A stretch of DNA of 62,129 bases, the filler included, from Nemertoderma westbladi (lineage: Eukaryota > Animalia > Xenacoelomorpha), in the NCBI GenBank assembly GCA_032718475.1. It is 3 parts of 3 records of this genome, joined end to end, with 100 filler letters (N's around TTAATTAATTAA, not from the genome) between each part and the next. Parts side by side here need not be neighbours in the genome. Positions count along the whole stretch, not along the records: positions 18,797 to 43,043 come from JAUCBJ010004467.1; 2 more parts are not named here. One strand, given 5' to 3'. A program made the translations under genes and the position numbers. The notes beneath the pieces are model-generated. The model did not search any database. It was not told where the DNA came from and saw nothing but the letters and a program-made list of their open reading frames with translations. Shown piece by piece: positions 18,878-62,017 of the stretch; the stretch's first letter is position 1; each line of letters begins with the position of its first letter.

Positions 18878-19715
18878 GTAAGACATATTATATTATGTTT
18901 GTATATGTTTGTTTATATTGAATATCGTAGCTTAAGTGTCATAAGGATAAGGCCCTAAGTCAAAGAGCCTACAAAAGATATCGAAAGATATGATGGCCTT
19001 TCTGCAGGAAGATATTGCCCAATAGAAATGTCGGATTTCACTTTACCACGTAATAATCATCACTTCCCATTGGATAAAATATTCAAAACTTCACCAGCTA
19101 ATACAGCATGTCTTAAAGCAACGATATATATATATGAATTAGATGGTGTTTCTTTTTATTCGAAGTTTTTTTAACATGTAAAACATACAATATTGGTATA
19201 AATATATATAAAAAATATCCCCCACCAAACAGTTAGACTATCACCAGCTGATAGGTTGGTTGCTAGGCTACCAACCAAACATACACACATAAATAGCATT
19301 TTTTTCCAAAATTGTAACATTACTCAACGTCATTAGCATTAACAGTGAGTTGTTATTTAGCACTTAACAACTTTAGATGACATTACAGCATTGTATTGGC
19401 CTGTAGTACATTTAGTATTGTATTGGTATTGTAATGTCCCTTGTTTATGTATAACCAATGACGGCGAGATGTAAAGTTACGGCGCCACTGGTTACCATGT
19501 AAACAATAGGTGGCATTTACAATTAATTGCCTGACAGCCAGATAGGCCTACTTTTTTTTATATCATAAAACACCCGGACGAGCCGGTATTATATTAGATA
19601 AAATATATATATACGGAATACATATACATATATAAGTGGGTACGCATGGTTTATCATTGGCAATAGGATAAAGATAACATAGGTAAATAAAGTGCACATA
19701 TATTTGGGCAAAACG

Positions 19716-20246
19716 TGTGACGGGATCCAGGAGGGATCCCGATTTATCCGGTATTTAGTTCACGCGTCCCCGCCGTGTATAAAGAGTGAATGAAAGTAAA
19801 ATGAGTTCTGAAGTTCGGTGTATAATAATAAAGGTATAAGATATAGATATATTGTATAGTATATGGAAGGCGGGATACGGTAACTAAAAGTCCCGTGCTC
19901 CCCTATCTAAACTAACTAACCTATGCTAGCACTACTGCACTGAGATAACTGAATTACTGATATTGGGTTACTGGTTATATTGCACGGTTGGCCTAATTAC
20001 TACCTAATCGATGCCTTGCCCCCCTCTGATTGGTTGATACCCTTGTTGGCACCCTGTGGAGTGTTCCCGTTCACTCCACCTGTTCTCTCTGGGTTAGGGG
20101 TTTGGCCCCTGACCCTTATTGTGTGGTTCTCCTTCCCACTCTCATTGGGATGGCACGAGTTGGTTAATTACCCAATCTCGTGGCTCCCAATATTGCTTAT
20201 CGGCTTATAACATTATGGGGCGTTAGCGGGATTGAATAAGCTAACA
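19716..20246 (-). repeat. 3' LTR of element A
   Basis: Plus strand tgtgacgggatcc...aataagctaaca; direct repeat of 32783-33313. Confidence 0.95.
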
Positions 20247-20559
20247 CTCCCCCCCCATGCTATCTTCCCGGTAAGAAGATAGCATCAACCAAAAAAGTGC
20301 GCTACAATCCCGCTGGATCCCGATCTTGTATCGGGTGTGGGGTGGAATTCTTTTCTCTCGGAGTCGGCTTTCCAGGCCGCCCCCTATGGGTATGATAACG
20401 CTACCCATGTGTGCCTGGCGTCTCATGTCGGGCCGATCGCGCTCACCTCTCACGCAACTTTTGTTTCCCCAACACTTTCGCCCTGACTCTACTCTTCCTC
20501 TCCTCCCCCCCCACGCTTGAATTGCGCCCACACTCTCTCCACACTATCTCCATACCACC

Positions 20560-21800
20560 TCTCGCTATCTCTCTTGCCCTCCCTAAGGCCCTAATCTCTA
20601 ATGCTACCCCTGTGCTATCATACCATCTACCTACTGCTTACTAACTCTAACTATCTAACTCTACTAACTACTAACTCTACTCTACTAACTCAACTACCTG
20701 GCACCCTATGTGCCCGTCTCTACTACTCTACTACCTCTAGCTCTCTAACTCTACTACCTGGCACCCTATGTGCCCTCTCTACTATTCTACTCTCTGGCAC
20801 CCTATGTGCCTTCTCTACTAATCTACTCTCTGGCACCCTATGTGCCCTCTCTACTACCTCTAACACTCTACTCTACTACCTGGCACCCTATGTGCCCTCT
20901 CTACTACTCTACTCTATCTCTAACTTTACTCTCTGGCACCCTATGTGCCTTCTCTACTAATCTACTCTCTGGCACCCTATGTGCCCTCTCTACTACCTCT
21001 AACACTCTACTCTACTACCTGGCACCCTATGTGCCCTCTCTGCTACTCTACTCTATCTCTAACTTACCTCCTTTGCATCTACTCCCTTTACGTCTACTCG
21101 CCTACACGTGACGCTCTGAATGCCGGCAGAGTGGGTACGTTAATCATGTGAACTACTACTAACTCTTACTAACTCTACTAACTCTCTACTAACTCTTACT
21201 AACTCTTTTTGTGCCCGGCACCTCTTGTGCCCGGCACCTTCTAACTCTACTAACTCCTTTTGTGCCCGGCACCTCTTGTGCCCGGCACCTTCTAATTAGC
21301 ATACCCTGCTCTTACATCAAACACATCATCACGCCCATGCCCCACTAAGTTCAGCGCATTCCCTACTAACTCTAACTAGGTGGCGCTTACGGTGCCCACA
21401 ACCTCTACTGCTACTTCCATCTACGTGGCGCTTATGGTGCCCACAACCCTCTACTGCTCTACTAACACTCCTAACCAGCGGTACTACGTACCCTCTTACT
21501 ACTCTAGCTCTCTCTACTAGCTAGCGGTACAACGTACCCTCCTACTACTCTAGCTCTCTCTACTAGCTAGCGGTACTACGTACCCTCTAACTCTCCTCTA
21601 ACTAACGGTACTACGTACCCTCTAACTCTCTAACTAACTAGCGGTACTACGTACCCTCTAACTCTAACTAACTAGCGGTACTTACGTACCCTCTAACTCT
21701 CTAACTAACTAGCGGTACTTACGTACCCTCTAACCCTCTAACTAACTATCGGTACTACGTACCACCCTTTAACTAACTAATTCTTACTACCTAACTTCTA
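20560..21800 (-). repeat. Hairpin-unit repeat array in the 3' UTR of element A
   Basis: 8x GGCACcctatGTGCC, 4x GTGCCcGGCAC, 2x gtggcgctta.ggtgcccac and 8x GGTACtacGTACC, separated by CTA/CTCT-rich linkers. Confidence 0.85.
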
Positions 21801-21856
21801 CCTACTCTATTATTTAATTATTTTCATTAATTTTAATTAAATAATTATTTTATATT

Positions 21857-24778
21857 TTATGCGTGGGAAGGGCGTCTCGCCCTCATTCCCACCCCCTCAG
21901 TCCAAAACTTTGGACGACTAAAAACTCTCACGTGCCCCTTCTTCCAGTAGGCACTCTCCTGCTGCCCTCCTATATGTCCTCTAATTCTTCGCCACACTCT
22001 CTTCGGTGCCACCTTTGCTGGCCTCCCCCTTCGTATGTGCGCTGGCATTAGAGCCCTCGACGACCCCCGCTCGTCCCTCGGTATACGCGGTGTCTGCCCA
22101 TATAATGCCCCCTCGCACTGTGTCAGCCTTGCGTGTGTATGCAACACGCCTCCTTCTACTTTCCCGACTCCTTTGCTCATGGACTTCTCTACCCCTGGTT
22201 TAGTCCTTTCACATCTTCTCCCTTTCCAACACTCTCCGGATCTGTGTCCTTTTACCACACATCTATGACATAGTCCGTTTGCGTCTGTGTAGGCTACACG
22301 ATCTCGTTTGGGCAACGCTTGCCAGTACTTGCAACTCCTGGTCTTATGGGTTCCGTCCCGATGTAATTGACATTGGAATCCTGTATTATAGCGTTTCCTG
22401 TATAGTCCTTCACGTATCGCGCTTAGGTTTATATGTACCGATTTAATGTTTTGGTTGTCTAGACTCGGCCTACTGGGTATATTGGGATTGTGTTTATTTT
22501 TGGTGTTATTTTCTTCCTGTCCCCGCCACGGTGTGGCCCTGCTACCTGCTAACTGTGGACTAGCAGTCCCCTGTACGGCCGCGTGTGGTGGTGACTGTCC
22601 GCACGACCTGTTCTCGTCCAGGGAGTTCGATGTTCTTGCTCCTATCGGGGTATATTGTCGATATTGTGATGGGGGAATGTCACCCTGTCCCCCCCCCAGC
22701 CGGTATGTTTGGTACTGGGGTTGATGTTAATACATTGGGGCCCATACGTCTATCTCCAATAACTCCCCCCTCCCCTGGATATATGTTATGTCCCTGTGTA
22801 TTATAGTCATGCTGCTGTACCGATATAGGCCTACCTACCTCTCGCCTACCTACCGGTATGTACTCCACGACTTCCGGGTTTAATCCCGTCGTTCGCGCTA
22901 CCCCATCGCCTACTCTATCTCTCCCAGCATGGCCTATAATAGTATGTGCAGTAAGGCCTACAGTATGTCCTGCAGTCTGCATGTGCCCTTCCGAACCGAA
23001 GTTTATTCTTCGCGAATCTCGAATCTCCCCGCGACTACCGCACTCTCGATCGGCAGCTATATCCCGTCGGGAAGCTTTTCTTCGATCCCCTCTCCTGTTC
23101 TCGACTTTGTAGTGGTACCTCCTGTACCCCTCTCTTGGCGTGCGGTGCGTTTCTCCGGGGCGACGGCAATCTCCCGAAGTTCGACCCCACTGGCTCCCTG
23201 ACTCCATCTCTACTGTCGACGGTCCGTTATCCATCCTCGCACTGCTATCGTTCGTGGCGACACTTCTTCTACTATCTTCTCTTCTTCTCTTTTCTGTGTA
23301 GTATTCCGGCTCGTGAGGTCTCTCGTCGACCTCCCGGTTAAACTCCATTGTTCTTCTTCCCTCTTCTAATCGGGCTCGACGCTTCGTCTGCCCTCTCGCG
23401 ACGTCAACCTGCCTCTCTCTGCTCGATCGCACGCCGCTGGGGATACTCGCAATCCCCCTATTACTCTCCATCGCCGGGTGTTGCGGTTTACCTGATTCGG
23501 CCCGCGCATTATCCGCTGACGGCTGTGGGACACTCTCTGCCCCCCCTCTCTCTCTACTAATCCCTCGCGGTGGGGTGCCCGTAGCCCCCCCCCACCCGCT
23601 ACTTCTAACTTCACTATATCTTACTACACTTCTGCGTCCCTCTTGTCGGACACTCTCTACCCCCTTTCTCTCGCCACTAATCTTCTGTGGTGGGGCGCCC
23701 GTAGCCCCCCCCCACCCGCCACTTCTAACTTCACTACCTCCTACTACACTTCTACACCCCTCTTGTGGGGCATTCTCTGCCCCCCCTCTCTCGCCGCTAA
23801 TCTCATGTGGTGGGGCGCCCGTGGCCCCCCCCCCACCCGCCACATCTAACTTCACTATCTCTTACTTCGTCTCTACACCCCTCTCTAGTCGACGCACTGT
23901 CTCTACTGCGGCCGGGTCTATTCACCCCCGCCTCTCTCTCTGCTACTGCGTGGCCCACCAGGCCCACTTCGGGTTGGCTCAACCCCGCTACCTCCTGCCT
24001 ACCATCTACATGGCCTACCAGGCCGCCGTCGGGTTGGCTCAGCCCCGCCACCTCCTGCCTACTAACTGCGTGGCCTACCAGGCAGCCGCCTGCCGGGCTA
24101 TACACGTCTGGCACGCTCATATTAATAGCACCATTCCCAATATTATTTGTTAAATCAATTAAATTATTAGAATTTGAAACGGGATTATTATTTAAATTAT
24201 TTAAATTAGAATTGTTATTATTTTCAAAATTTAAATTATTATTCGAATTATTTGAATTATTCTGGATATTTGAATTAATATTATTATTTGAATTTAAATT
24301 TAAATTACTACTACCAGGTAAAATATTTCCTGTAATAAAGGGATTAGGGTTATCTACTACGGTACTATTAATATTAACTATTTCTAACGTACTACTACTA
24401 CCCCCCCCCCCCCCCCCCCCCCCCCCCCCGCCCGTACGGCTACACCAGTTCTGGTTCTCTCGCCCGGTGTATGTAAGTGGGGTCTCACTCTCTGATAGTT
24501 CCAACCGCGCCAGTTCTAGTCGGCGCTGATTCAGTTTGGCTTGATATTGCGTAAGCCACTCTAGTCGGGCACGCAAATCACCCTGCACGCGCTTACTCTC
24601 CATCTCTCTCTCCTGATCTCTACACTCCTCGGCTCTCTCTCTATCCTCCCTTTCCCACTCTCTAACACCCTGGGCTAGCTCCGCAATTTCTAAATCATAC
24701 GCCAGATTTATCTCCCGCACCCTTCTTTCTTTTGCGGAGGACGTAGCAGACTTATCGGTTGCGACGGACTCCCACCGC
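21857..24778 (-). pseudogene. Gag remnant of element A (central capsid region deleted, frameshifted), 3' part
   Basis: ORFs 23803-24720, 22680-23855 and 21857-22315 are homologous to element B gag. About 800 bp of the DUF1759-like core is missing at ~22600. GLCHRCVVKGHRSGEC is retained. Confidence 0.85.
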
Positions 24779-25320
24779 TGTGACGGGATCCAGGAGGGAT
24801 CCCGGTTTATCCGGTGTTTAGTTCACGCGTCCCCGCCGTGTGTGAAGAGTAAAATGAGTTCGTGATCGTTCGGTGTATATAATGATCAGGCATAAAGATA
24901 TAGATATGGATATAGGTTGTTGTACACGGAAGGCGGGATACGGTAACTAAAGTCCCGGTCCTTCCCTAGCTAAACTATCTAACCTAACTAGCACCAATAT
25001 GATACTGGGATAACTGAACTGGTATGATTACTGGTTACTGGTTATATTGCACGGTGGCCTTATTGCTGTACCTCAATCGATGCCTTTCCCCCCTCTGATT
25101 GGCTGATACCCCTGTTGGCGCCCTTTGGAGTGTTCCCGTTCACTCCACCTGTTCTCTTTGGGTTAGGGGTTTGGCCCCTGACCTCCATTGTGTGTTTCTC
25201 CTTCCCTTCCCACTTTATTGGGGTGACACGAGGTTGATATTGGTAATCAACCTCGTGCTCCCAATATTGCTTTATGGCTCACTTTATGGGGTTTGGTGAG
25301 GCGGAATTGATTCGCTAACA
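24779..25320 (-). repeat. 3' LTR of element B
   Basis: tgtgacgggatcc...ttcgctaaca, followed on plus by ctcccccccc (PPT on minus). Confidence 0.95.
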
Positions 25321-25699
25321 CTCCCCCCCATGCTATCTTCCCGGTGAGAAGATAGCATCAACCTCTAAGTGCGCTTCAATTCCGCTGGAACTCGATCTAT
25401 TATCGGGTGTGGGGTGGAGTTATTTTCTTGGAGTCGGCTTTCCAGGCCGCTCCCTATGGGTATGATCTCACTACCCTCTGGCGTCTCGTGTCGGGCCGAT
25501 CGTGCGCTTCTCTCACACAATTTTTGTTTCCCCAACACTCTCACCACTCTAACTCCGCTCTCTGACTCAACTCGCTCTTACCCTCTCCCCACACCTGAAT
25601 CGCACTCTTCTCTCTCGCCAACAGTTCCTCTCACTATCTCCTCTCTACTCTCTGCCACTCTCTAAGGCCCTAATCTCTAATGCTATCCCTGTGCTATCA

Positions 25700-26740
25700 T
25701 ACTATCTACCTTATCTAACTTACTAACTCTAACTATCTAACTCTACTAACTACTAACTCTCTGCTAAGTCTACTAACTCTTACCAACTCTTCTACTACGT
25801 GGCGCTTAGGGTGCCCACAACCCTCTGCTACTACCTCCATCTACGTGGCGCTTGCGGTGCCCACAACCACTCTACTACTAACTCTAACTAAAACCCTCTA
25901 TCTACGTGGCGCTTGTGGTGCCCACAACCATTCTACTACTACTTCTACTCTGCTACTATCTTTCTAACTCTACTACCTGGCACCCTATGTGCCCGTCTAC
26001 CCTACTACTCTACTCTCTGGCACCCTATGTGCCCTCTCTACTACCTCCAACACTCTAACTCTACTACTTGGCACCCTATGTGCCCTCTCTACTACTCTAC
26101 TACCTGGCACCCTATGTGCCCTCTCTACTACTCTACTCTCTGGCACCCTATGTGCCCTCTCTACTACCTCTAACACTCTAACTCTACTACCTGGCACCCT
26201 ATGTGCCCTCTCTACTACTCTACTCTCTGGCACCCTATGTGCCCTCTCTACTACTCTACTCTCTGGCACCCTATGTGCCCTCTCTACTACCTCTAACACT
26301 CTAACTCTACTACCTGGCACCCTATGTGCCCTCTCTACTACTCTACTCTCTGGCACCCTATGTGCCCGTCTCTACTACTCTACTCTATCTACATCTCCAC
26401 CTCAACTAATACCTCTATCTACGTGGCGCTTGCGGTGCCCACAACCACTCTCTGCTACTACTTTCTATGTGGCGCTTCCGGTGCCCACAACCCCCCTACT
26501 ACTACTCCTTTCTACGTGGCGCTTCCGGTGCCCACGACCCCCCTACTACTCGTGGCATGACAATATGCCACACTCCCTTACCCCGCCGCCTTCTAACCTA
26601 CTCTCCTTCTATGTGGCGCTTACGGTGCCCACAACCCCCCTACTACTACTCGTGGCATGACAATATGCCACACTCCCTTACCCCGCCGCCTTCTAACTCT
26701 CTACTTACTATCCTTTACTACTTCTAACTTCTACTAACTA
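25700..26740 (-). repeat. Hairpin-unit repeat array in the 3' UTR of element B
   Basis: 10x GGCACcctatGTGCC at mostly 36- and 51-bp spacing, about 7x gtggcgctt..ggtgcccac, and 2x GTGGCATgacaatATGCCAC. Confidence 0.85.
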
Positions 26741-26862
26741 TTACTTTCTTATTTTATTATTTAATTATTTTATTTAATTAATTAAATAATTATTTGTGTG
26801 GGAAGGGCGTCTCGCCCTCATTCCCACCCCCCTCAGTCCAAAATATTGGACGACTAAACCTC

Positions 26863-29800
26863 CTAACTAGGGCGATTCTTCCAACAGGCACTCTCCCACT
26901 GCTGCTCTTGTAGGTCCTGTAGGATTCGCCGCACTCTCTTCGCCAATTCCATCTCACCAGGAATTGGTTCTCCCTCTTCTGCCACCCTAAGGTTGGGTCT
27001 CTCCACCGTCTTCTTAACTGGTTCCTCTCCTGGCATCAAAATGCCACCTCCCTCCTTGTTGTCTCCCGCCGGCAGAATGAATAACAAGTGAAAGAACAGG
27101 CAGAACAGAAGGTACAATAGTAGTCCTATCCCTTTCCATCCTGCCTTCCTTCTCGACTTCCCCCTTGTCGGTATGCCTCCAAACCGGACCAGCGTCTCTT
27201 CCGGACACTCCTCTAGACACTCCTTCCGACACTCCTCCGGGCACTCCCCCGGAGTGTTGTCCTCCGGACACCTCGCCGTCCGCTCCGCTCCATCTCCATA
27301 CCGATGCTTGCTGGGAAACCTACTCTCCTCTGCCCACTTTCTTACTGTCACCTCCTCACTATGCTTATCTACCCTCTTCGGTTTCTTATATTCGTCCTCT
27401 GTGTCTGCGGTGCCTGGCATCATGCACCCATGGTAACATGTTGTTACTGATCGACCGCCCTCTCCTGATATCTTCACTGGCACTACCCCGAGTAGTACTT
27501 TTCTCTTCTTCTCTTCTGTCGTGCTTGTAGCTGCTGTATCTCTACACTCTCCGGATCTGTGTCCTTCTACCACACATCGATGACATAGTCCGTTTGCGTC
27601 TGTGTAGGCTATACGATCTTGTTTGGGCAACGCTTGCCAGTGCTTACAACTCCTGGTCTTATGTGTTCCGTCCCGATGTAATTGACATTCGAATCCTGGA
27701 TTATAGCGTTCCCTGTATAGTCCCTCACGTATCGCGCGTAGGTTTATATGTACCGATTTAGTGTTTTGGTTGTCTGTATTCGGCCTACTGGGTACATTGG
27801 GATTATGTTTATTTATGGTGTTATTTTCTTTCTGTCCCTGCCATGGTGTGGCCCTGCTACCAGCTAACTGTGGACTAGCAGTCCCCTGTGTGGCCGCATG
27901 TGGTAGTGATTGTCCTACTCTCGGGAGTGGATCTGCAGGATCGTGTTCGGGTTTATGGCTTGTCCCCAAACTATCCTCGCTATAGACTGGGTCTGTTATT
28001 AATTCGGCTTCATAGTTGAGGAAGCTCGACATTTCTTCTAGGCCTGGTTCCGCACCTTTCTTCTCACGTGTGGAGAAAGCGATTTTCCTCCACTTCCTTC
28101 GTAACCAGACCGGCAGTGCCTGCGCTATCGTGGTGATGTTGTTAGACGCGTTGAGTTCGTATGGTGCGTCTAGCGTCTTTAACACGATTAACGCCTTCTC
28201 GACCTTGTTTGCAAAGGTCCTTATGCTAACGGGATTGTCCTGTAGGCCATCCGATGTTATGCCTCTCAGGGTTTGCCGGATGATCTTGGCCGGGTGCCCG
28301 TATTCCCTATCTAGCGCCCGCCATGCTGTCGTGAAGCCGCCCTCGATGCCCTGGTATTGCCTCACGATGTCGTATGCTGGGCCTCCTGTATATACTTGCA
28401 GATATTTTAGGCACTCCGCCTGCGTCAAGTTCTTACTTAATATTTCGTTACTATACATGCGCCGAAACTGTAGATATTCTTCCGGCCTACTCCCATCGAA
28501 TTTAAATGGTTCCACAGGTGGTAACTCGATCCTAGTTTTTAATGCATCGATTAATGTGGCCATTCCCATCGCTTGCGCTTCTAATGGGTTCGATGGATGT
28601 TGTATAGTTTCTCTTGCTGGGTACGGTCCGTTCGTCCTATCTGCTGTTGACTTTGCTTGTTGCGTCGGGTATATCATTGGGGGTAACGGCCCCCTCCATA
28701 TTTCCGTGTCGCACGATCTGCTCTCGTCCAAGGGGTTCGATGTTCTCGCTCCTATTGGGGTATATTGTTGATATTGTGATGGGGGAATGTCACCCTGTCC
28801 CCCTCCCACCGGTATGTTTGGTACTGGGGTTGATGTTAATATATTGGGGCCCATACATCTATCTACAATAACTCTCCCCTCCCCTGGATATATGTTGTGT
28901 CCCTGGAAATTATAGTCATGCTGCTGTACCGGTACCGATATAGGCCTATTCACTTCTTGCCTACCTACCGGTATGTACTCCGCGACTTCCGGGTTTAATC
29001 CCGTCGTCCGCGCTACCCTATCGCCTACTCTATCTCTCCCAGCATGGCCTATAATAGTATGTGCAGTAAGGCCTACAGTATGTCCTGCAGTCTGCATGTG
29101 CCCTTCCGAACCGAAGTTTATTCTTCTCGAATCTCGAATCTCCCCGCGACTACCGTACTCTCGATCGGCAGCTACATCCCGTCGGGAAGCTTCTCTTCGA
29201 TCCCCTATCCTGCTCTCGTCTTCATATCGGTACATCCTGTACCCCTCTCTTAGCGTGTGGTGCGTTTCTCCGGGGCACGGCAATCTCCCGAAGTCCGACT
29301 CCACTGACTCCCTAATTCCCTCTCTACTATCGACGGCTCGCTATCCGTCCTCGCTCTCCGGTTGCTCCTAGCAACGACTCTTATATTATCTTCCTTTCTT
29401 CTCTCTTCGACCTCTCGGTTAAACTCTGCTAATCTTCTTCTATCTCCGACCTCTCTATTATACTCTACTAATCTTCTCCTATCTTCGACCTCTCTATTAA
29501 ACTCTACTAATCTTCTCTCTTCTAACTGGGCTCGACGTTCCGTCGCCCGCCCTCTCGCGACGTCAACCTTTCTCTCTCTGCTCGATCGCACGCCGCTGGG
29601 GATACTCGCAATCCCCCTATTATTCTCCATCGCCGGGTGTTGCGGTTTACCTAATTCGGCCCGCGCATTATCCGCCGACGCCTGTGGGACACTGCCTGCC
29701 CCCCCTCTCTCGCTACTAATCCCTCGCGGTGGGGTGCCCGTAGCCCCCCCCCCACCCGCTACTTCTAACTTCACTATCTCTTACTACACTTCTACACCCC

Positions 29801-31367
29801 TCTTGTGGGGCATTCTCTGCCCCCTCTCTCTCGCCGCTAATCTCATGTGGTGGGGCGCCCGTAGCCCCCCCCCACCCGCCACATCTAACTTCAATATCTC
29901 TTACTTCGTCTCTACACCCCTCTCTAGTCGACACACTGTCTCTACTGCGGCCGGGTCTATTCACCCCGGCCTCTCTCTCTACTACTGCGTGGCCTACCAG
30001 GCCCACCTCGGGTTGGCTCAACCGCGCCACTTCCTGCCTACTAACTACGTGGCCTACCAGGCCGCCGTCTGCCGGGCTATACACGTCTGACGCGTTCACA
30101 TTAATAGCACCATTCCCAATATTATTTGTTAAATCAATTAAATTATTAGAATTTGAAACGGGATTATTATTTAAATTATTTAAGTTAGAATTATTATTAT
30201 TTTCAAAATTTAAATTGCTATTCGAATTATTTGAATTATTTTGATTATTCTGAATATTTGAATTAATATTATTATTTGAATTTAAACTTAAATTACTACT
30301 ACCGGGTAAAATATTTCCTGTAATAAAGGGATTAGGGTTATTTACTACGGTACTATTAATACCAATATTTCCCAACGCACTACTACTACCCCCCTCGCCC
30401 GTACGGTTGCTGTACGTACTGTACGTGTACCGCACGCTCTGTTCTCTTGCCTCACGCTCTTCGCGTTCACTCTCTCGCTCCTTCCTTCCCTTCAGTCGCC
30501 ACTCTAATTCTTCAATTTTTAATTTATATGCAGCCAGATTTATCTCCTGCACCCTTCTTTCTTTTGCGGAGGATGTAGCAGACTTATCGGTTGCGACGGA
30601 CTCCCGCCGCCCCTCCGTCCTACTAACTTTCCCCGCTTTCCGGGGTTCTCGCTGACCGACGAGACCGAATCCTCGGAGCTAACCTCGGATTCGCCCTCGT
30701 GCAGTCCCGCCCAACCCACTAACTTAACTTCCCTGGCATCGACTAAGTATGGCCCTATGTACACTACACCAGGCCCCATACCCCTACGTTCCCATAGCCC
30801 AAACAGTTCGAAGGCAACCCCTCTCGCTCTCTCCTCGGCCAGTTCTCCCTGCCCAGAACGCACTAGGTAATCAAAGTATCTGTTCGACTCACCTAGTCGT
30901 CTCCTCAACTTCACCTGGCCTATCTCAGCCCCTCCTCTAGCTTCCTTCAGTTGTTCCCGGGTCGCGGCGTAGGCTCGTCGAAGTCGATCAGAAACCCCGA
31001 CATCCTCGTCGCCGACCTCCCCTCCATCTCTCCGGGTCCGACGTCGTACCGGCGGCCCCACCGTCGCCGTTCCGGTGGGCCGTCCGTCGCCCTCGGTCTG
31101 TGGCTGACCGGTGACATCGGTACGTCGACCCTCGCTCCGCGTCGACTCGTCTTCCTCTTCTCCTCCCGACTCGATTTCTCTTTGTAGACGACCCCCCACA
31201 TCTTGGTTCGCCGGGTCGCTCGTTATCGACGTGGCGTCAACGTACGTCGACGTGGTCGGCGTAGCATCGACTGGCGTCGTGGGTTCGTATCGTCTCGCCG
31301 TGGCCTCGCGGATCGTTAGATCGTCGTCCGGGGTCCGCGGCGGCGTCGTTCCTTTCTCTCGACTCAT
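26863..31367 (-). CDS. BEL/Pao Gag of element B (~1500 aa if frameshifts are repaired), truncated at the protease
   Basis: ORFs 30540-31367, 29716-30552, 29250-29774 and 26863-29304. LPPVEPFKFDG..EYLQF...LKYLQVYTGGPA...AWRALDREYG is DUF1759-like. CQLH..H..RSC and CHRC...GH...C knuckles; VLLGVVPVKI marks the protease start. No RT, RNase H or integrase motifs were seen. Confidence 0.88.
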
Positions 31368-31427
31368 CTTGCTGGTGATTGGTGGCTGATGGTTTGGCTA
31401 GCTAGGGCAGCGGTTGGTTTTAGTTAC

Positions 31428-31959
31428 TGTGACGGGATCCAGGAGGGATCCCGATTTATCCGATGTTTAGTTCACGCTTTCCCTCCGTGTGTAAAGAGTA
31501 AAATGAGTTCTGATGTTCGGTGTATATAATGATCAGTCTAATAAGATATAGATATAGGTTGTTGTACACGGAAGGCGGGATACGGTAATTAAAGTCCCGG
31601 TCCTTCCCTAGCTAAACTATCTAACCTAACTAGCACCAATATGATACTGGGATAACTGAACTGATATGATTACAGGTTACTGGTTATATTGCACGGTGGC
31701 CTTATTGCTACTCAATCGATGCCTTTCCCCCCTCTGATTGGCTAATACCCCTGTTGGCACCCTTTGGAGTGTTCCCGTTCACTCCACCTGTTCTCTTTGG
31801 GTTAGGGGTTTGGCCCCTGACCTCCATTGTGTGTTTCTCCTTCCCTTCCCACTTTATTGGGGTGACACGAGGTTGATATTGGTAATCAACCTCGTGCTCC
31901 CAATATTGCTTTATGGCTCACTTTATGGGGTTTGGTGAGGCGGAATTGATTCGCTAACA
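31428..31959 (-). repeat. 5' LTR of element B
   Basis: Direct repeat of 24779-25320, with roughly 15-20 differences by eye. Confidence 0.95.
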
Positions 31960-32725
31960 GCCGCCCCTCCGTCCTACTAACTTTCCCCCGCCTCCCGGAA
32001 CTTCCTCCAACCGACGAGACCGAATCCTCGGAGTTAACCTCGGATTCGCCCTCCTCAGGTCTCTTCCAACCCACTAATTTTACTCCCCGGGCATCGACTA
32101 AGTATGGCCCTACGTACACTACGCTAGGTTCCATACCCCCACATTCCCATAGTTCAATCAGTTCGTTGGCAACTCCCCTCGCCCTCTCCTCGGCTAGTTC
32201 TCCCTGCCCAGAACGCACTAGGTAATCAAAGTATCTGTTCGACTCACCTAGTCGTCTCCTCAACTTCACCTGGTCTATCTCAGCCCCTCCTCTAGCTTCC
32301 TTCAGTTGCTCCCGGGTCGCGGCGTAGGCCCGTCGAAGTCGATCAGAAACCCCGACGTCCTCGTCGCCGACCTCTCCTCCATCTCTCCGGGTTCGACGTC
32401 GTACCGACGGGCCCACCGTCGCCGTTCCGGTGGACCGTTCGTCGTCCTCGGCCTGTGGCTGGCCGGCGACATCGGTACGTCGACCTTCACTCCGCGTCGA
32501 CTCGTCTTTCTCCCTTTCGACTCCCGACTCGTCCTCTCTTTGTAGACGACCCCCCACATCTTGGTTCGCCGGGTTGCTCGTTATCGACGTGGCGTCAACG
32601 TGCGTCGACGTGGTCAGCGTAGCATCGACCGGCGTCGTGGATTCGTATCGTCTCGCCGTGGCATCGCGGATCGTTAGATCGTCGTCCGGGGTCCGCGGCG
32701 GTGTCGTTCCTTTCTCTCGACTCAT
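31960..32725 (-). pseudogene. 5' part of the element A gag, interrupted by element B
   Basis: MSREKGTTPPRTPDDDLTIR... is nearly identical to ORF 30540-31367. Confidence 0.88.
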
Positions 32726-32782
32726 CTTTGTCTTTGGTAGCTGATGGTTTGGCTAGCTAGGGCAGCGTTTGGTTTTAGTTAC

Positions 32783-33313
32783 TGTGACGGGATCCAGGAG
32801 GGATCCCGATTTATCCGGTATTTAGTTCACGCGTCCCCGCCGTGTATAAAGAGTGAATGAAAGTAAAATGAGTTCTGAAGTTCGGTGTATAATAATAAAG
32901 GTATAAGATATAGATATATTGTATAGTATATGGAAGGCGGGATACGGTAACTAAAAGTCCCGTGCTCCCCTATCTAAACTAACTAACCTATGCTAGCACT
33001 ACTGCACTGAGATAACTGAATTACTGATATTGGGTTACTGGTTATATTGCACGGTTGGCCTAATTACTACCTAATCGATGCCTTGCCCCCCTCTGATTGG
33101 TTGATACCCTTGTTGGCACCCCGTGGAGTGTTCCCGTTCACTCCACCTGTTCTCTCTGGGTTAGGGGTTTGGCCCCTGACCCTTATTGTGTGGTTCTCCT
33201 TCCCACTCTCATTGGGATGGCACGAGTTGGTTAATTACCCAATCTCGTGGCTCCCAATATTGCTTATCGGCTTATAACTTTATGGGGCGTTAGCGGGATT
33301 GAATAAGCTAACA
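32783..33313 (-). repeat. 5' LTR of element A
   Basis: Direct repeat of 19716-20246. Confidence 0.95.
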
Positions 33314-33318
33314 AAACG

Positions 33319-34900
33319 CATCAGACAAAGATAACATATGTAGGTAAATAAAATGCACATACAACATGTTTGAGCAAAACGCATCAGGTCATTGTAAAAA
33401 AATAAGAAAACTTGGTGCAGATGTAATGAGAAGCATGTCATAAGGTTTTCTATCTCGAAGGGTGGACCACATAACCATATTAACAGTATGTGAAGAGGGG
33501 GGTGGGTGGGGGGGGGGGGGGGGATTGCAGAGTTCAGGTAGAAGTGATTATGATAGGAGTTTGCGCTGCAAATATAGTTGGATATCAGATTAGGAAACGC
33601 CATAATATGAGAGTATTCTGGCTCTTTTCTCTTCAATGCTGATTGTTTTGAGTGTGAGTGTAGTTCTAATGAAATTTGAGCTGATCAGTTCACGATATGT
33701 CGGCTTGGCAAGGGAAATACGCGACACCAGCTCACTTTTGGAATATGAAAAGTTGAGTGCAGAAAGCAGGTCAGGTAAGGCGTAGGATGAGCGCGCGATG
33801 CTGTAGCCACAAGAAATGCGGCGATACGACGCCAGGGGGCGCACATTGCTGAACATTGCAATCCGACAACTCAGTTGTAGAAAGCGACTAGGACAGTTCA
33901 ATATGCGCAGGATGGTACCGACACACAACCGAAGTGCAGCAATCGAGATTGGCACAAGATTGGCGACGTGGTAAAGAGTGCAATTCCCAACATATGGGCC
34001 AAGGTTTAGTAAACCTATTAACGATTTGCGGTAGAATACATCAAGAGCGTCACGATCAGTGGAGGTAAGAGAACCTATATTGAATTTTAATCCATATGTG
34101 GTAGCTGGTACAGCGAGGGAGTCCCATAGTCGGAAGACCACCTTAGGAGGAAGCCAGCGCGTTGTCCAGCCTCTAGTGTGAAATGTTTGAGAGTAGTAAG
34201 CTATCAACCTGATAGAATCATTAAGGATTACTTTGGAGTTTGATGAACTTTTAAGGTTGTATCCTAAGAAGGTAAGGGCAGAACTTCTTGCAACAAAAGA
34301 TCCACATATGTTGATAAAGCAGGGTTTATGACATGGATTTTGGATGCTTTCGACTACAATCCATGAGGTTTTAGTGGGTTCAAAGCTAAGACAGACCTCG
34401 TCTGCTTTGTCACTTACAATCATTGCCATTCGTTCGAGATCAGTAGCCAAGGTGCTAAGAAGGAGGAAGTCATCGGCGTATACTATGGCGCCTAACCACA
34501 CAGGGCTGACACGACAACCTAAGTTGGAACTCTCTAGAGCCGCAGTTATATCAGCTGTGTATAAGTTAAAAATAGTTGGTGATAGTAGAGAACCTTGCTT
34601 TAAACCTTGGGCTACATGTATGCCGTTACAATAGAAACTACCATCATTAAATTTGAGAAAAACTATACCACAAGTGTAATATGACTAGACCGTAGCTGCG
34701 ATGTGAGGGTTGACTCCATGGTCCAGCAGCTTTCGAATGAGTGTGCAGTACTCAACATTGTCGAAGGCCGATTCTATATCTAGCTGAAGCAGGCACACTG
34801 CGGAGCTTTTGGATCTATAATGCTCAATACGTTCCAGCAATGTGGCGATTACCCCTGACGATGTAACCACCTCAGTTTCCAATGCGGGTACTTTTGGATC
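33319..34900 (-). mobile_element. Non-LTR retrotransposon RT and C-terminus; its 3' tail is the insertion site of element A
   Basis: LDIESAFDNV, GLKQGSLLSP.IFNLY, YADD and FLG motifs. The tail repeat aagataacata...gcaaaacg continues on the other side at 19670-19715. Confidence 0.88.
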
Positions 34901-34996
34901 TATAATGCTCAATACATTCCAGCAATGTGGCGATTACCCCTGACGATGTAACCACCTCAGTTTCCAATTCGGGTACTTTTAACTGTAAAATAGGTC

Positions 34997-37900
34997 ATCT
35001 CGCAACATTTATCATTTTACAAAAATTTAGCTGTATTTTTAATGAACCTAAACCACGCCACACTTTCGACTATTCAAAACTTGACGAATCTTCTTTCCTT
35101 CGTGACATTAATAAACCCTCCAACTGGTCCTACACCGATAAATCAATACCCATCACCTCAAAGTTCGACTGTTTTTACGATAATCTCACCAACATTTGCT
35201 CCTCTCATATCCCTTCAAAATCATATACACACAAAACTCGGCCCCTCAAAGCATGGATCACTGAAAGTCTACTCAAATCAATCAGAACTAAAGACAAATT
35301 ATACAGGAACTATTTAAAAAACCGAACTGAAACCAACAGTAAATGTTTTACCGACTATCGTAATCATCTCACAAAAACCTTAAAAAATTGCCGAAAAAAA
35401 ATATTATTCGCAACAATTTGATAACAACATTACAAATTCCCTCAAAACTTGGTCGATAATTAATACTGTACTCCACAAAACAACTTCTAAATCATCACCC
35501 AAAAAACTTATTATAAAAATGAATACCTCCGCACAAATTGTATCAGACCCAACTCAAATTACAGAAATATTCAACGAACACTTTTCAACCATTGGAACTA
35601 AACTCCAAAGTACCTTACCGACTTGCACACCCCGATCCCCCCGACACCATCTTTCAAATACTAGAGTGAACTCTTTTACATTAACAAAAACATCTGCAAT
35701 AGAATTATAATACCGAATCGACCCCCACATGCGTCTGCCGTCTCTGCGACGACCAGGCGACGGACAAGGACCACGGCCTCAGTTGCACTGGCGTCCCGAC
35801 TCTACTAACAACAGTAAAACGCTCACTGTTCCTGTACGCCGTGAAATGATCTATTCTAATTTTTACACGATCTATTTTAAAACTTCCCCCAGCCACGCTA
35901 TAACCAAACATTGAATTGTACAATATTTCAACCGTGCAACGACATTTTATTATATTATATATATTTTTACTATTTTTATTATATTATATATTCATTTTAT
36001 TATATCCCCATCCCCAAATAACCTATAAATAATGTGTATCCCATTTTCCATTATCTGTCATACAATACAGTATTATATGGTCACATAACAACTTTCATAT
36101 TTTACAGTAGGCCTACCTACCTTTATGTGCATGTTTATTTTATTTACACCATATGTTGGTATTAAAGCTTTCGTTTCATAATACCGAATCCTCAACCTCA
36201 AATTAAACTGCAGTTCTAACGATCCGTTCCCCACCAAACTACTCCGACTTGCTGCCAAACCATTTTCCCAACACCTGTGCTACTTATTCAACCTTTCAAT
36301 AAAGTACGGATTTTTTCCCGATTCATTAAAAATTGCTAAAGTTATACCACTATTCAAATCATTTAATTTTTTTGTTGTTTACATTTAATATCTATTAGGA
36401 CCCCATGCACCCTCACATGGAGAAACGTTTTTTCTGCTACTTGTTTTTCAAAAAAATTGCTCCGTGTAAGGTGGTCAGTAATTAAGTTACTAGAAACACT
36501 CAAAAACATTTCGCAACAAAAGTTTGTGTTATTTTTTTCCCTAGGGAAAAAGTACTTATTTTTCTCTCTATACGTACGTATTATTCACATAAAATCTTAA
36601 TATTTGTAATAAGAAATGGGTGAATTTGTTAGTATTAACTAATAGTGGTTTGGTCATATTAGTAATATGGGAAAATCTAGAAACACTCAAAAACATTTCG
36701 CAACAAAAGTTTGTGTTATTTTTTTCCCTAGGGAAAAAGTACTTATTTTTCTCTCTATACGTACGTATTATTCACATAAAATCTTAATATTTGTAATAAG
36801 AAATGGGTGAATTTGTTAGTATTAACTGTGGTTTGGTCATATTAGTAATATGGGAATAGAATGTTATAGAATAACGAAAAAAAAAATGAAGAGAGCTGCT
36901 GAGCTGAAGATTTAAGAAGACGGTTGAACCGAGCCCGAATATCACGTCAGGCAAACGAGACTTACCGCTGCGCCGGTACTTCACTTTTCGTTCACTAGTA
37001 CCCAAGGTATTGTTCGTGGTAATTTCCTGCACATTTAAGGCCTGGGTTCTTACCTTGAATCAATCCTCGCGCCCACGCGCTCAGGCCCTTCGCGATTTCA
37101 GGTACGGCCCGCCCCCCCTACTCCACTCTGCTCGCTTCCTCTCCACTCCGATTTTCGCGTTTTTAGAATATTCGGTGACGGTTCTATTTAAACACTATTC
37201 TGTGAACACTGTAGATATTTCTTTTTTATATTTTAATATTTTTCATTTATTTAACAATTAAATTAAATTCACCTTAGTAAATTAAGACGTAAACAAACAA
37301 TTGCTATTTTCACTTAATTGACAGCTTTAATTTCTTTGTATTGTAGTTATAATTTTAACAGCTATGAGTTCTTTGGTTGTTATTGTGTCAGGTGAGTCGA
37401 TGATATTGAGTTTCTTGATGTAGCTCTCTTTGCCAATGTCAATGCCCAGTCGTTCTTGCTGATCCTCGCTTAGATGCTTGGTGGGAATTGGATGTCGGCT
37501 GCTGAAATCGATAATTCAGATCACCACGCAACATTTATCATTTTACAAAAATTTAGCTGTATTTTCAATGAACCTAAACCACGCCACACTTTCGACTATT
37601 CAAAACTTGACGAATCTTCTTTCTTTCGTGACATTAATAAACCCTCCAACTGGTCCTACACCGATAAATCAATAGCCATCATCTCAAAGTTCGACTGTTT
37701 TTACGATAATCTCACCAACATTTGCTCCTCTCATATCCCTTCAAAATCATTTACACACAAAACTCGGCCCCTCAAAGCATGGATCACTGAAAGTCTACTC
37801 AAATCAATCAGAACTAAAGACAAATTATACAGGAACTATTTAAAAAACCGAACAGAAACCAACCGTAAATGTTTTACCGACTATCGTAATCATCTCACAA

Positions 37901-59091: not shown

Positions 59092-60965
59092 TGCAGGGGG
59101 TGGAGGGAATGCTGGCGCGTAAGTTGTAAACCTAAGGTTTCCAATCTTACATGATAACGAAGCTGAAGGCTACCATGGCAACATACCAAGGCAACCCCCA
59201 CCTACACGTTTGAGCCAAGGCCAAACTGGCCCCCCACGTATTTTCCTGAAAGGGTAATTTGTTTTGGGCCCCGCTCGCATCTATTTATTTCATTCTATCA
59301 TTACCTTCTACTGTATGACAAAAATAATACAAATGTACTGTATATTGTATTTTTTCGATAATTGCGTTAATTGCACTTTTATTAAGCTACATATATTCCT
59401 GCTGTTGATACCGCTACAAATTGGTGACCCGGACGACTACTGAACACAACGAAACCGACGCAAGTAATATATTACAACAAGAACTTAGCAACATGTCCGA
59501 CAATGAAACTCCAACACCAGCAGTTAACGCCGTAAGTATTAAAATTCCACCCTTTTGGAGTGACGATCCTGAACTTTGGTTCCTTCAAGTGGAGGCACAA
59601 TTTCGAGAAAGACAAGTAACAGTCCAACAAACGCGATTTGACCACATCGTCGCTGCATTATCTCCCGATGTAGCGCGGTACATCAGAGATGTTATTAAAA
59701 ATCCACCGAAACCGAATCCATATGAAGGTTTGAAAACCGCATTAATTGAAAGGTTCGCCCCAACACGCCACCATAAGAGCTTCAAAAACTGCTTTCAGCA
59801 GAGCACCTTGGTGACAGAAAACCGTCGCAGATGCTACGTGATATGGAAAAGCAACTAGGCGACACAACCTCTGATGAACTATTACGTGAGCTCTTTCTCA
59901 ATCGACTACCGAAAGATATGCGATTAGTATTATTGGCCTCTAAAATGCCCCTTGGCGAACTTGCCTTAATAGCTGACGATATTATTGATGGGTGCACTGT
60001 GTCAAACCCCCATCAAGATTCAGTCTCCTCAACCGACTACGACATTGGCAGAAACGAACAAGCGACCACAAATTTAAACGCCACGTTTAGTAGACCAACT
60101 TCATGGACTGGGCCACCTGGACAGAAACCAAGGATGTTCACAAGGACCAATAATAACGCGCGTCAACCAGAATATTGTTGGTATCATCAGCGCTTTGGGA
60201 AAAACGCCAAAAACTGCACACCTCCATGCGCTGCGGCACTCCCGAATACACAGGGAAACGCGAGGGCCAGCAGCAAATAAATGCGGCAACGTCTGCTGGC
60301 CGATGCAGCCGCTTGTTCTACGTAATAGATAAGCGATCAGGATACCGGTTTCTTGTAGACTCTGGTTCGGCCGTTAGTGTCCTACCTGCAAAATATGCCG
60401 ATAAACTACTCACCAAAGAGGATACCTCTACACCACAACTTGTTGCTGCTAATGGAACAACCATTGATACATATGGCAACAAAACCCTAACACTCAATTT
60501 AGGGTTACCGCAACGATTAACTTGGAAATTTGTTATCGCCAATGTGTCACAACCAATATTGGGCGCAGATTTTTTTAGTAATTTCGGACTGCTCATCGAT
60601 TTGAGACATTCTAGCCTCATAGATGCAAAGACTTACACCCACGTTCCCGGTAAAATATCGCATTCGATAAAGGCACCTGGGTTAAGCTTCATCTGCGATT
60701 CTAATGAATTCAATGAATTACTCTTAGAATTCCCTTCATTAACAGAAATGACATTTCGTGAATCAAAGCTAAGACATGACGTTGAACACCACATAGAGAC
60801 TGTAGGAGCACCCATTCACAGCAAACCAAGACGCCTATCACCAGAGAAACTTTCAGTCGCCAAGGAAGAATTCCAACAGATGTGTAATCTAGGCATTATA
60901 CGCCCTTCATCTAGTCAATGGTCATCACCGTTGCACATGACCCCCAAACAAAAACCTGGTGAATG
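59092..60965 (+). mobile_element. Ty3/Gypsy LTR retrotransposon 5' part (LTR, PBS, gag, protease, RT start), truncated
   Basis: The LTR ends ...ccgctaCA at 59418 (start uncertain). PBS TGGTGACCCGGACG (tRNA-Trp-like). Gag KIPPFWSDDPELWFLQVEAQF and CWYHQRFG..A..C..PC, protease FLVDSGSAVS, RT start SSQWSSPLHM. Confidence 0.92.
60253..60312 (+). promoter_or_regulatory. -1 programmed ribosomal frameshift signal (gag-pol)
   Basis: G GGA AAC heptamer in the gag frame, 5-nt spacer, 9-bp stem GGCCAGCAG/CTGCTGGCC; loop GCGGC can pair with downstream GCCGC; pol is in the -1 frame. Confidence 0.8.
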
Positions 60966-62017
60966 GCTACTCGTCATTTGGACTGTGATACCGTCGGATT
61001 TCTTTGGCGCATGAAAGGAGTACCATCCATCACCCACTCAGTTCGGTTCTTGGCGGGATCACTTAGTAAAGTCGAAAGCCGCAAATTAGAGATTGAGTAT
61101 CGGAAGGCCCTTCGGAGTCTCTTACTGGTCGGCCCCTACGTTAACAACCAGATCATTTACAATCTACTTGGATGCCGCCCTCTACACAATGAGGTATACA
61201 AACAGTGCATAGGTACCATACTAAAGAGTCGCTAGCTGCCCAGTCCCATTCTTACAATCACTTATCAAATCAGCCTCGCGGTTCAATAGCTGCTCGAACA
61301 CAAACTATGTAGGCTTGACTTCTGCATACGCGAAATGCAGAAGCAATTACCCAATGCCCAGTCTGCACAGTCTACTCACCTATACCTACTGTAAACGTTC
61401 CCTCTTTAACCGTGCTAAGACTGAACCACTAACAATCAGTGAAACTGTTGGGATGAACTTCATTAAAAACTGCTACAGCAACAGTAACTGCGGAAGTTTC
61501 ATATCTAAGCATAAACGTATCCTGTCTTATTTTAATGTCGTTTGAACATCTGTCCGATGCCTGTTTGCGTGTTGTGCTGCAAATATATTTTATTGATTCA
61601 ATCATCCCGAGACCGTCAATGATTATTACGGACCATATTATTTACCTTATATTACCCATATTGATCTGATTTTATTCGTGCTGTGCACATTTTATCTTCT
61701 TATAACAATGTGTGTGTACCCGTACCGGTATACTAACTGCCTCAGTTTTCACCAAAAACACAACTTGATCCTAAGATACTTTGATACTTTAACATTGCAG
61801 AATAGATCATATTATGGTGCATTTTAATTTATATAAATTTTTACTATAGTGCTGTGCTGTGCACATTTTATTTAATGGGCTACTTTCTGTGTAGATAATC
61901 TGTGTAGATATACTTTCTGTGTCGATATCTGTCATTTGTGTTTGCGCCATATTTTTAAACTTTTATTGTCGGCAAGTCCGAATTTAAATAAATAATAATA
62001 AATAAATAAATAAATAA
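60966..62017 (+). mobile_element. 5'-truncated LINE (relative of the 33319-34900 family) abutting the truncated Gypsy pol
   Basis: YRKALRSLLLVGPYVNN...CIGTIL and KRILSYF align with ORF 33590-34501; an (AAAT)n tail lies at ~61985-62017. Confidence 0.75.

Follow-up and report, generated by a model that had tools for sequence, protein, structure and literature searches.

Two nested BEL/Pao-related elements

The window, by which we mean the whole stretch of 62,129 nucleotides of Nemertoderma westbladi DNA analysed here, carries two LTR elements on its minus strand, with element B (31959-24779) nested inside element A (33313-19716). The 5' LTR of A (32783-33313) is 531 bp long, has TG...CA termini and agrees at 529 of 531 positions with the 3' LTR (19716-20246), which is preceded by a polypurine tract; a 5-bp target duplication, CGTTT, is intact on both flanks. 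A short tandem repeat of some 62 nt surrounds A (33385-33314 and 19715-19660), and its preceding unit corresponds to the empty site. The LTRs of B (5', 31428-31959; 3', 24779-25320) are about 81% identical to those of A and differ from one another at 21 of 532 positions, with three gaps in addition. The insertion of B, marked by the target duplication GCGGC/GCGGT, splits the first reading frame of A (31960-32725, minus strand), and a matching empty site is present in the interior of B itself. This frame, together with the leader, lies upstream of gag and is 91% identical between A (32725-31960) and B (31367-30606, both minus strand), with no Pfam match. The 3' non-coding parts of both elements (20639-21760 and 25700-26700) are filled with long purine-rich tandem repeats, with units of 36-51 nt among others.

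The nested element has more diverged LTRs than the outer one (p 6e-5), and the differences between its LTRs are concentrated from the primer motif described below to the LTR end (16/167 positions against 5/365 elsewhere, p 2e-5). This may reflect a recent move of the whole 13.6-kb composite of A and B, or else conversion or recombination of LTRs.

Within B, a frame of 825 codons (26863-29340, minus strand) encodes the BEL/Pao gag domain DUF1759 (E 4.7e-11). No similarity to RT, RNase H or integrase was found in A or B, which retain only gag-side BEL/Pao remnants, and both are therefore non-autonomous. The gag gave no match in two word-indexed protein searches; a full HMMER search returned relatives that are 23-36% identical, the long ones being complete BEL/Pao polyproteins and the named ones coming from a nemertean and a limpet. 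Full-length relatives contain Pao RNase H/peptidase A17, RT and integrase domains; among those of more than 1,600 aa that were scanned, Peptidase_A17 occurs in 17/17 and the integrase zinc-binding domain in 16/17. In a gag tree the gag of A/B forms a long branch of no supported placement (24-30% identity to the closest loci), and so the evidence from relatives presented below carries over to A and B by analogy within BEL/Pao. The ICTV profile of the Belpaoviridae, which calls BEL/Pao replication poorly understood, describes tRNA priming from an 18-nt primer-binding site (PBS) for tRNA-Arg or tRNA-Gly (PMC8742986). The two elements resemble that family in their DUF1759 gag, TG...CA LTRs, short target duplication and polypurine tract, but have neither the 18-nt PBS nor pol; as there is no TGG behind either 5' LTR, we file them only as a gag-related BEL/Pao derivative.

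Elsewhere in the window, three exons of a RABGAP1-like gene (46797-43879, minus strand) encode PTB, DUF3694 and TBC domains; the RABGAP1 exon is about 62% identical to vertebrate and molluscan sequences alike, in keeping with a host animal that lacks close relatives among the proteins searched. Other retroelements are represented by two RT fragments, apparently of non-LTR type, and by the frame of an aspartyl protease (33590-34684, minus; 1331-2425, plus; 60157-61014, plus).

The post-LTR site and its recurrence among relatives

The 5' LTR of A ends in GTCACA and is followed directly, in the position of a PBS and at offset 0, by the 10-mer GTAACTAAAA (32782-32773, minus strand); TGG is absent from the 30 nt behind the 5' LTR of A and of B. 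The exact complement of this 10-mer, TTTTAGTTAC, lies inside the LTR of A at 32956-32947 (minus strand), 164 nt from the LTR end, and is the candidate self-primer. Element B has the identical 10-mer behind its 5' LTR (31427-31418), matched over 9 nt in its 3' LTR (the complement ending at 24943) and at all but one internal position in its 5' LTR. An 8-bp hairpin at 32808-32788 (minus strand), which ends 5 nt before the LTR end, is unchanged in all four LTRs. This anatomy was described in the initial annotation and is confirmed throughout. Given the near-identical LTRs and intact target duplication of A, the element was likely copied recently without a tRNA site.

The match in A is exactly 10 nt long; dinucleotide shuffling of the LTR equalled it in 29 of 20,000 trials, and in 62 of 20,000 when offsets of 0-3 were permitted. 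The LTR of A reaches at best 7 nt against 24 foreign post-LTR sites. No tRNA gene was found in the window or in the 30 of 80 relative loci that were scanned for one.

These relatives were obtained with an alignment of the 17 full-length sequences, which was used to scan 14 of 64 parts of a set of metagenome contigs. Of 570 confirmed stretches the best 80 were taken, and 55 of these loci were kept, the other 25 starting downstream of gag or having almost no upstream DNA; viral contigs were also scanned and gave no locus. Two LTR copies can be compared in ten loci, of which seven have an own-LTR complement of 10-15 nt, two are of TGG type and one (L020) is undecided. The complement is contiguous and 11 nt long in L012 and L058; in L005 (with its LTR end set by comparing the two copies), L059, L061 and L066 it attains 11-15 nt only if the LTR is spliced at a GT-AG joint, and in L044, where the second LTR copy ends at the contig end, 10 nt across such a joint. 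The two TGG-type loci, L007 and L028, have this site 5 nt behind the LTR and an own-LTR complement of only 4-5 nt; we take their site to be of the tRNA type.

All 22 non-TGG loci, representing 21 families, have an own-LTR complement of 10-15 nt that starts 0-5 nt behind the LTR end and is different in every family. Foreign pairs of LTR and PBS, with spliced joints allowed, reach at least 11 nt in only 4 of 644 cases and 10 nt in 14 of 644, and consequently no single host RNA explains the pairings. Covariation between the LTR motif and the post-LTR sequence, proposed in the initial annotation as a check on self-priming, is thereby found across 21 distantly related families with different letters. 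Since 15 of the 24 LTR ends in this own-versus-foreign matrix had been chosen by eye while the pairing was visible, which is circular, a blind scan was run behind ACA/ATA ends; it returned an 11-nt match in 24/55 loci, against 1-8 in ten shuffles, and a 10-nt match in 37/55, against 4-18 in ten shuffles, and most of the 31/55 loci lacking an 11-nt match were not resolved. The primer in the 22 relatives is mostly 11 nt long, equal to that of Tf1, and ends in AC (17), AT (3) or ACT (2). It lies 46-193 nt from the LTR end in 21/22, and the 164-nt distance, zero offset and AC end in A all fall within the range of the relatives.

Only five of the 22 complements are contiguous as in A, the other 17 being formed only across a predicted LTR intron, mostly of 71-193 nt and beginning with GTAAG in 14 cases. 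One further locus (L023:40-140) fits the spliced type, in that 5 nt able to pair with the post-LTR sequence come after an acceptor-like site; it was not counted, its upstream exon lying off the contig. Loci L014 and L019 share the same PBS and 90% identity over 7.1 kb; a 171-nt predicted intron splits the primer in L014, whereas in L019 it has been precisely removed and the primer is contiguous, which shows that this stretch of the LTR passes through RNA. The five contiguous loci do not group together in a quick RT tree but are spread among the spliced ones, a distribution that suggests repeated intron loss. A and B are of the contiguous type: a splice-built primer was sought in their LTRs and ruled out, no GT/GC-AG joint giving at least 9 nt. 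A 37-nt stretch of the form AG/GT...TTTTAG, with donor- and acceptor-like ends (32988-32952, minus strand; same length in B), does end inside the primer motif, but we reject it as an intron because splicing would cut the match to 7-8 nt; it is also probably too short, the gaps in the host gene being about 550 and 900 nt.

Two incidental features of the relatives may be recorded. L051 and L052, on one contig, are BEL/Pao copies in head-to-tail tandem with 100% identity in the repeated parts, and in L010 (260-420) TTAGGG-like repeats lie immediately upstream of the BEL/Pao reading frame.

Transcript start, predicted folds and a model of priming

Two candidate transcription starts are visible in the LTR of A, both recognised in the initial annotation. 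One is the primer motif itself, in which the A of an initiator-like TTAGTT is preceded, 26 nt upstream, by the start of a TATA-like TTTAGATA. The other is a probable promoter, by motif match, at 33012-33100 (minus strand), comprising CCAAT (33100), TATAA (33046) and an initiator-like TCAGTT (A at 33017), the last two 29 nt apart and the start 61 nt upstream of the primer motif. The CCAAT/TATAA/TCAGTT set is kept with correct spacing in all four LTRs, whereas TTTAGATA reads TTTAGCTA in B, and on these motif matches the upstream promoter appears to fit better, a start at the motif being doubtful. The primer would then be internal to the transcript, unlike that of Tf1. A search of sequencing runs listed no RNA run with this sequence; pieces from one run (share 0.04, contigs only) cover 32987-33313, outside the motif and the PBS, and so speak in neither direction.

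The region between the two candidate starts is also predicted to pair. For the 45 nt upstream of the motif and the 45 nt that follow the PBS, the predicted pairing energy is -28 kcal/mol in A (z -3.2; 0/300 base shuffles) and -29.5 kcal/mol in B (p 0.023), the predicted partners in A being 32988-32964 and the leader segment 32766-32751 (minus strand). Such pairing makes sense only if the upstream segment is transcribed; it is not general, reaching p<0.05 in 3/22 relatives. A start far from the motif, which the initial annotation regarded as grounds for refuting self-priming, is by virtue of this pairing compatible with it.

When the RNA of A is folded from the motif, the predicted minimum-energy state (z -2.85) is a junction of the primer:PBS duplex, a stem directly after the primer (32946-32936 with 32841-32832, minus strand) and the terminal hairpin. 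Folded from 33016, it has two predicted states within 0.1 kcal/mol, with the primer either on the PBS or on a PBS look-alike, GTGAACTAAA, inside the LTR (32830-32821, minus strand). The 3' LTR copies are not followed by a PBS, and there the folding predicts that the look-alike holds the primer copy. For A, whose primer:PBS duplex is only 10 nt long and A/U-rich, the predicted pairing probability is about 0.27 when folding begins at the upstream start and 0.3-0.6 when it begins at the motif, as compared with at least 0.90 in 19/22 relatives; the low value weakens the priming model and at the same time hints at a switch. Relative to the Tf1 'pretzel', in which both stretches next to the PBS pair downstream of the primer, the post-primer stem and a 4-bp pairing at the LTR end are predicted and the leader pairs upstream; the three-duplex form as such was not recovered in the fold of A, pseudoknots being outside the folding model. 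No Rfam family was found in 19000-35000.

We consider it moderately probable, by analogy with Tf1, that A and B as non-autonomous BEL/Pao-type elements dispense with a tRNA and prime minus-strand DNA from an internal stretch of the element's own transcript. That transcript would probably start near 33017; the 10-mer, lying some 60 nt further on, would base-pair with its complement immediately behind the LTR, and flanking stems would assist. Cleavage at the end of the duplex, behind 32947, would fall to the RT/RNase H that an intact relative supplies in trans, and this enzyme would then extend the new 3' end through U5 and R. What lies upstream of the cut would be recovered from the copy in the 3' LTR, and this would also account for the persistence of LTR introns in relatives. 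Counting against the model are the short duplex of A with its low predicted pairing probability, the mismatch in the motif of the 5' LTR of B, the 31/55 loci that lack an 11-nt match, and the rarity of the upstream pairing among relatives. Self-priming in either form, from an internal primer or from a Tf1-like 5' end, we regard as likely; the tRNA-independent self-priming put forward in the initial annotation thus gains strong comparative support from covariation in 21 families, although its Tf1-like start at the motif is not supported.

That start would imply self-priming exactly as in Tf1, with transcription beginning at or next to the 10-mer and the RNA 5' end as primer. The initiator-like TTAGTT behind TTTAGATA speaks for it, as does the fold from the motif, which favours primer:PBS pairing most. 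We nevertheless think it unlikely in view of the altered box in B, the conservation of the upstream promoter motifs, and the pairing of the upstream segment with the leader in both elements. The relatives divide in the same sense: among six with a TATA-like match inside the LTR (a seventh, outside the repeat, was dropped, and all are motif matches and not mapped starts), the box lies 124-167 nt before the primer in five and 31 nt before it in one, L061.

The complementarity might alternatively be real but serve in gating packaging, dimerisation or translation, or in masking the site, while synthesis starts from another primer such as a tRNA fragment, a small RNA or a protein. Two near-equal folds suggest a switch, a host tRNA primer is conceivable as host tRNAs lie outside the searched sequence, and priming by tRNA halves has been reported for Copia lineages (PMC6317226). 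Yet the paired stretch keeps its place and length just behind the LTR end while differing in every family, such that a host primer would have to change family by family, and the pairing is absent in the two TGG-type loci; we judge a structural role with another primer improbable. Chance is a far poorer explanation still. The LTR of A is rich in TAGTT-like words, the match is only 10 nt long, and foreign pairs with spliced joints allowed do occasionally attain that length; but its rarity among shuffles, the failure of the same LTR to exceed 7 nt at foreign sites, and an offset, end and distance all typical of the relatives make a fortuitous match highly improbable.

Relation to known priming systems

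In Tf1, as described in PMC7175516, the first 11 bases prime and RNase H cuts between bases 11 and 12, and the primer is set in a three-duplex structure (PMC10085805). Self-priming is described for Tf1/sushi elements and predicted for Tcn1 and TAR in PMC6317226, PMC4600332, PMC5341516 and PMC5006619. A shares with Tf1/Tf2 of S. pombe, Tj1, Tosmo and the Tf1/sushi group of Ty3/gypsy chromoviruses the absence of a tRNA site and an LTR segment complementary to a short PBS right behind the 5' LTR, of about 11 nt in those elements and with flanking stems. It is not a member of that group, however, which is defined by Ty3/gypsy chromovirus proteins, whereas the gag here is of the BEL/Pao type and places A and B in a different superfamily. 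Other differences from Tf1 are that the primer of A probably lies about 60 nt inside the transcript, that the leader sequence following its PBS has a predicted partner upstream and not downstream of the primer, that a PBS look-alike would compete for the primer within the LTR, and that in most BEL/Pao relatives the primer is put together across a predicted intron.

A parallel in the type of evidence is the TAR lineage of plant Ty1/copia elements (Houba, Osr-1) and the Tcn1 clade, for which self-priming was likewise predicted from complementarity of LTR and PBS beyond the Tf1 host range; these are Copia or Gypsy elements, in plants, and theirs too is prediction only (PMC6317226). The Copia elements Osser, Bryco and Bianca are of the tRNA-half primed kind, with a PBS complementary to an internal tRNA fragment. 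For BEL/Pao, no title or abstract opening in the literature searched reports self-priming (subscription journals, Repbase Reports and supplements lying outside its scope), and no passage on priming occurs in the available portions of PMC3118150, PMC554778, PMC6238403, PMC2774666, PMC8220671, PMC3286476 (by term search in the text) and PMC3601003.

More tentatively, it is possible that tRNA priming has been replaced by an internal self-primer in a large branch of BEL/Pao. The primer would mostly be built by host splicing of an LTR intron, such that only the spliced 5' copy can prime, and intron-less families such as the one described here would arise repeatedly; in this one an RNA switch between the true PBS and its look-alike in the LTR would take over the gating. 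If self-priming is correct, BEL/Pao would be a third superfamily to have reached the solution of Tf1/sushi and, by prediction, of TAR, with a primer that is internal and often splice-built. It would explain why annotation based on the PBS misses or mislabels such elements, would make priming in BEL/Pao directly testable by sequencing of 5' ends and strong-stop DNA, and would tie the initiation of reverse transcription to splicing by the host.
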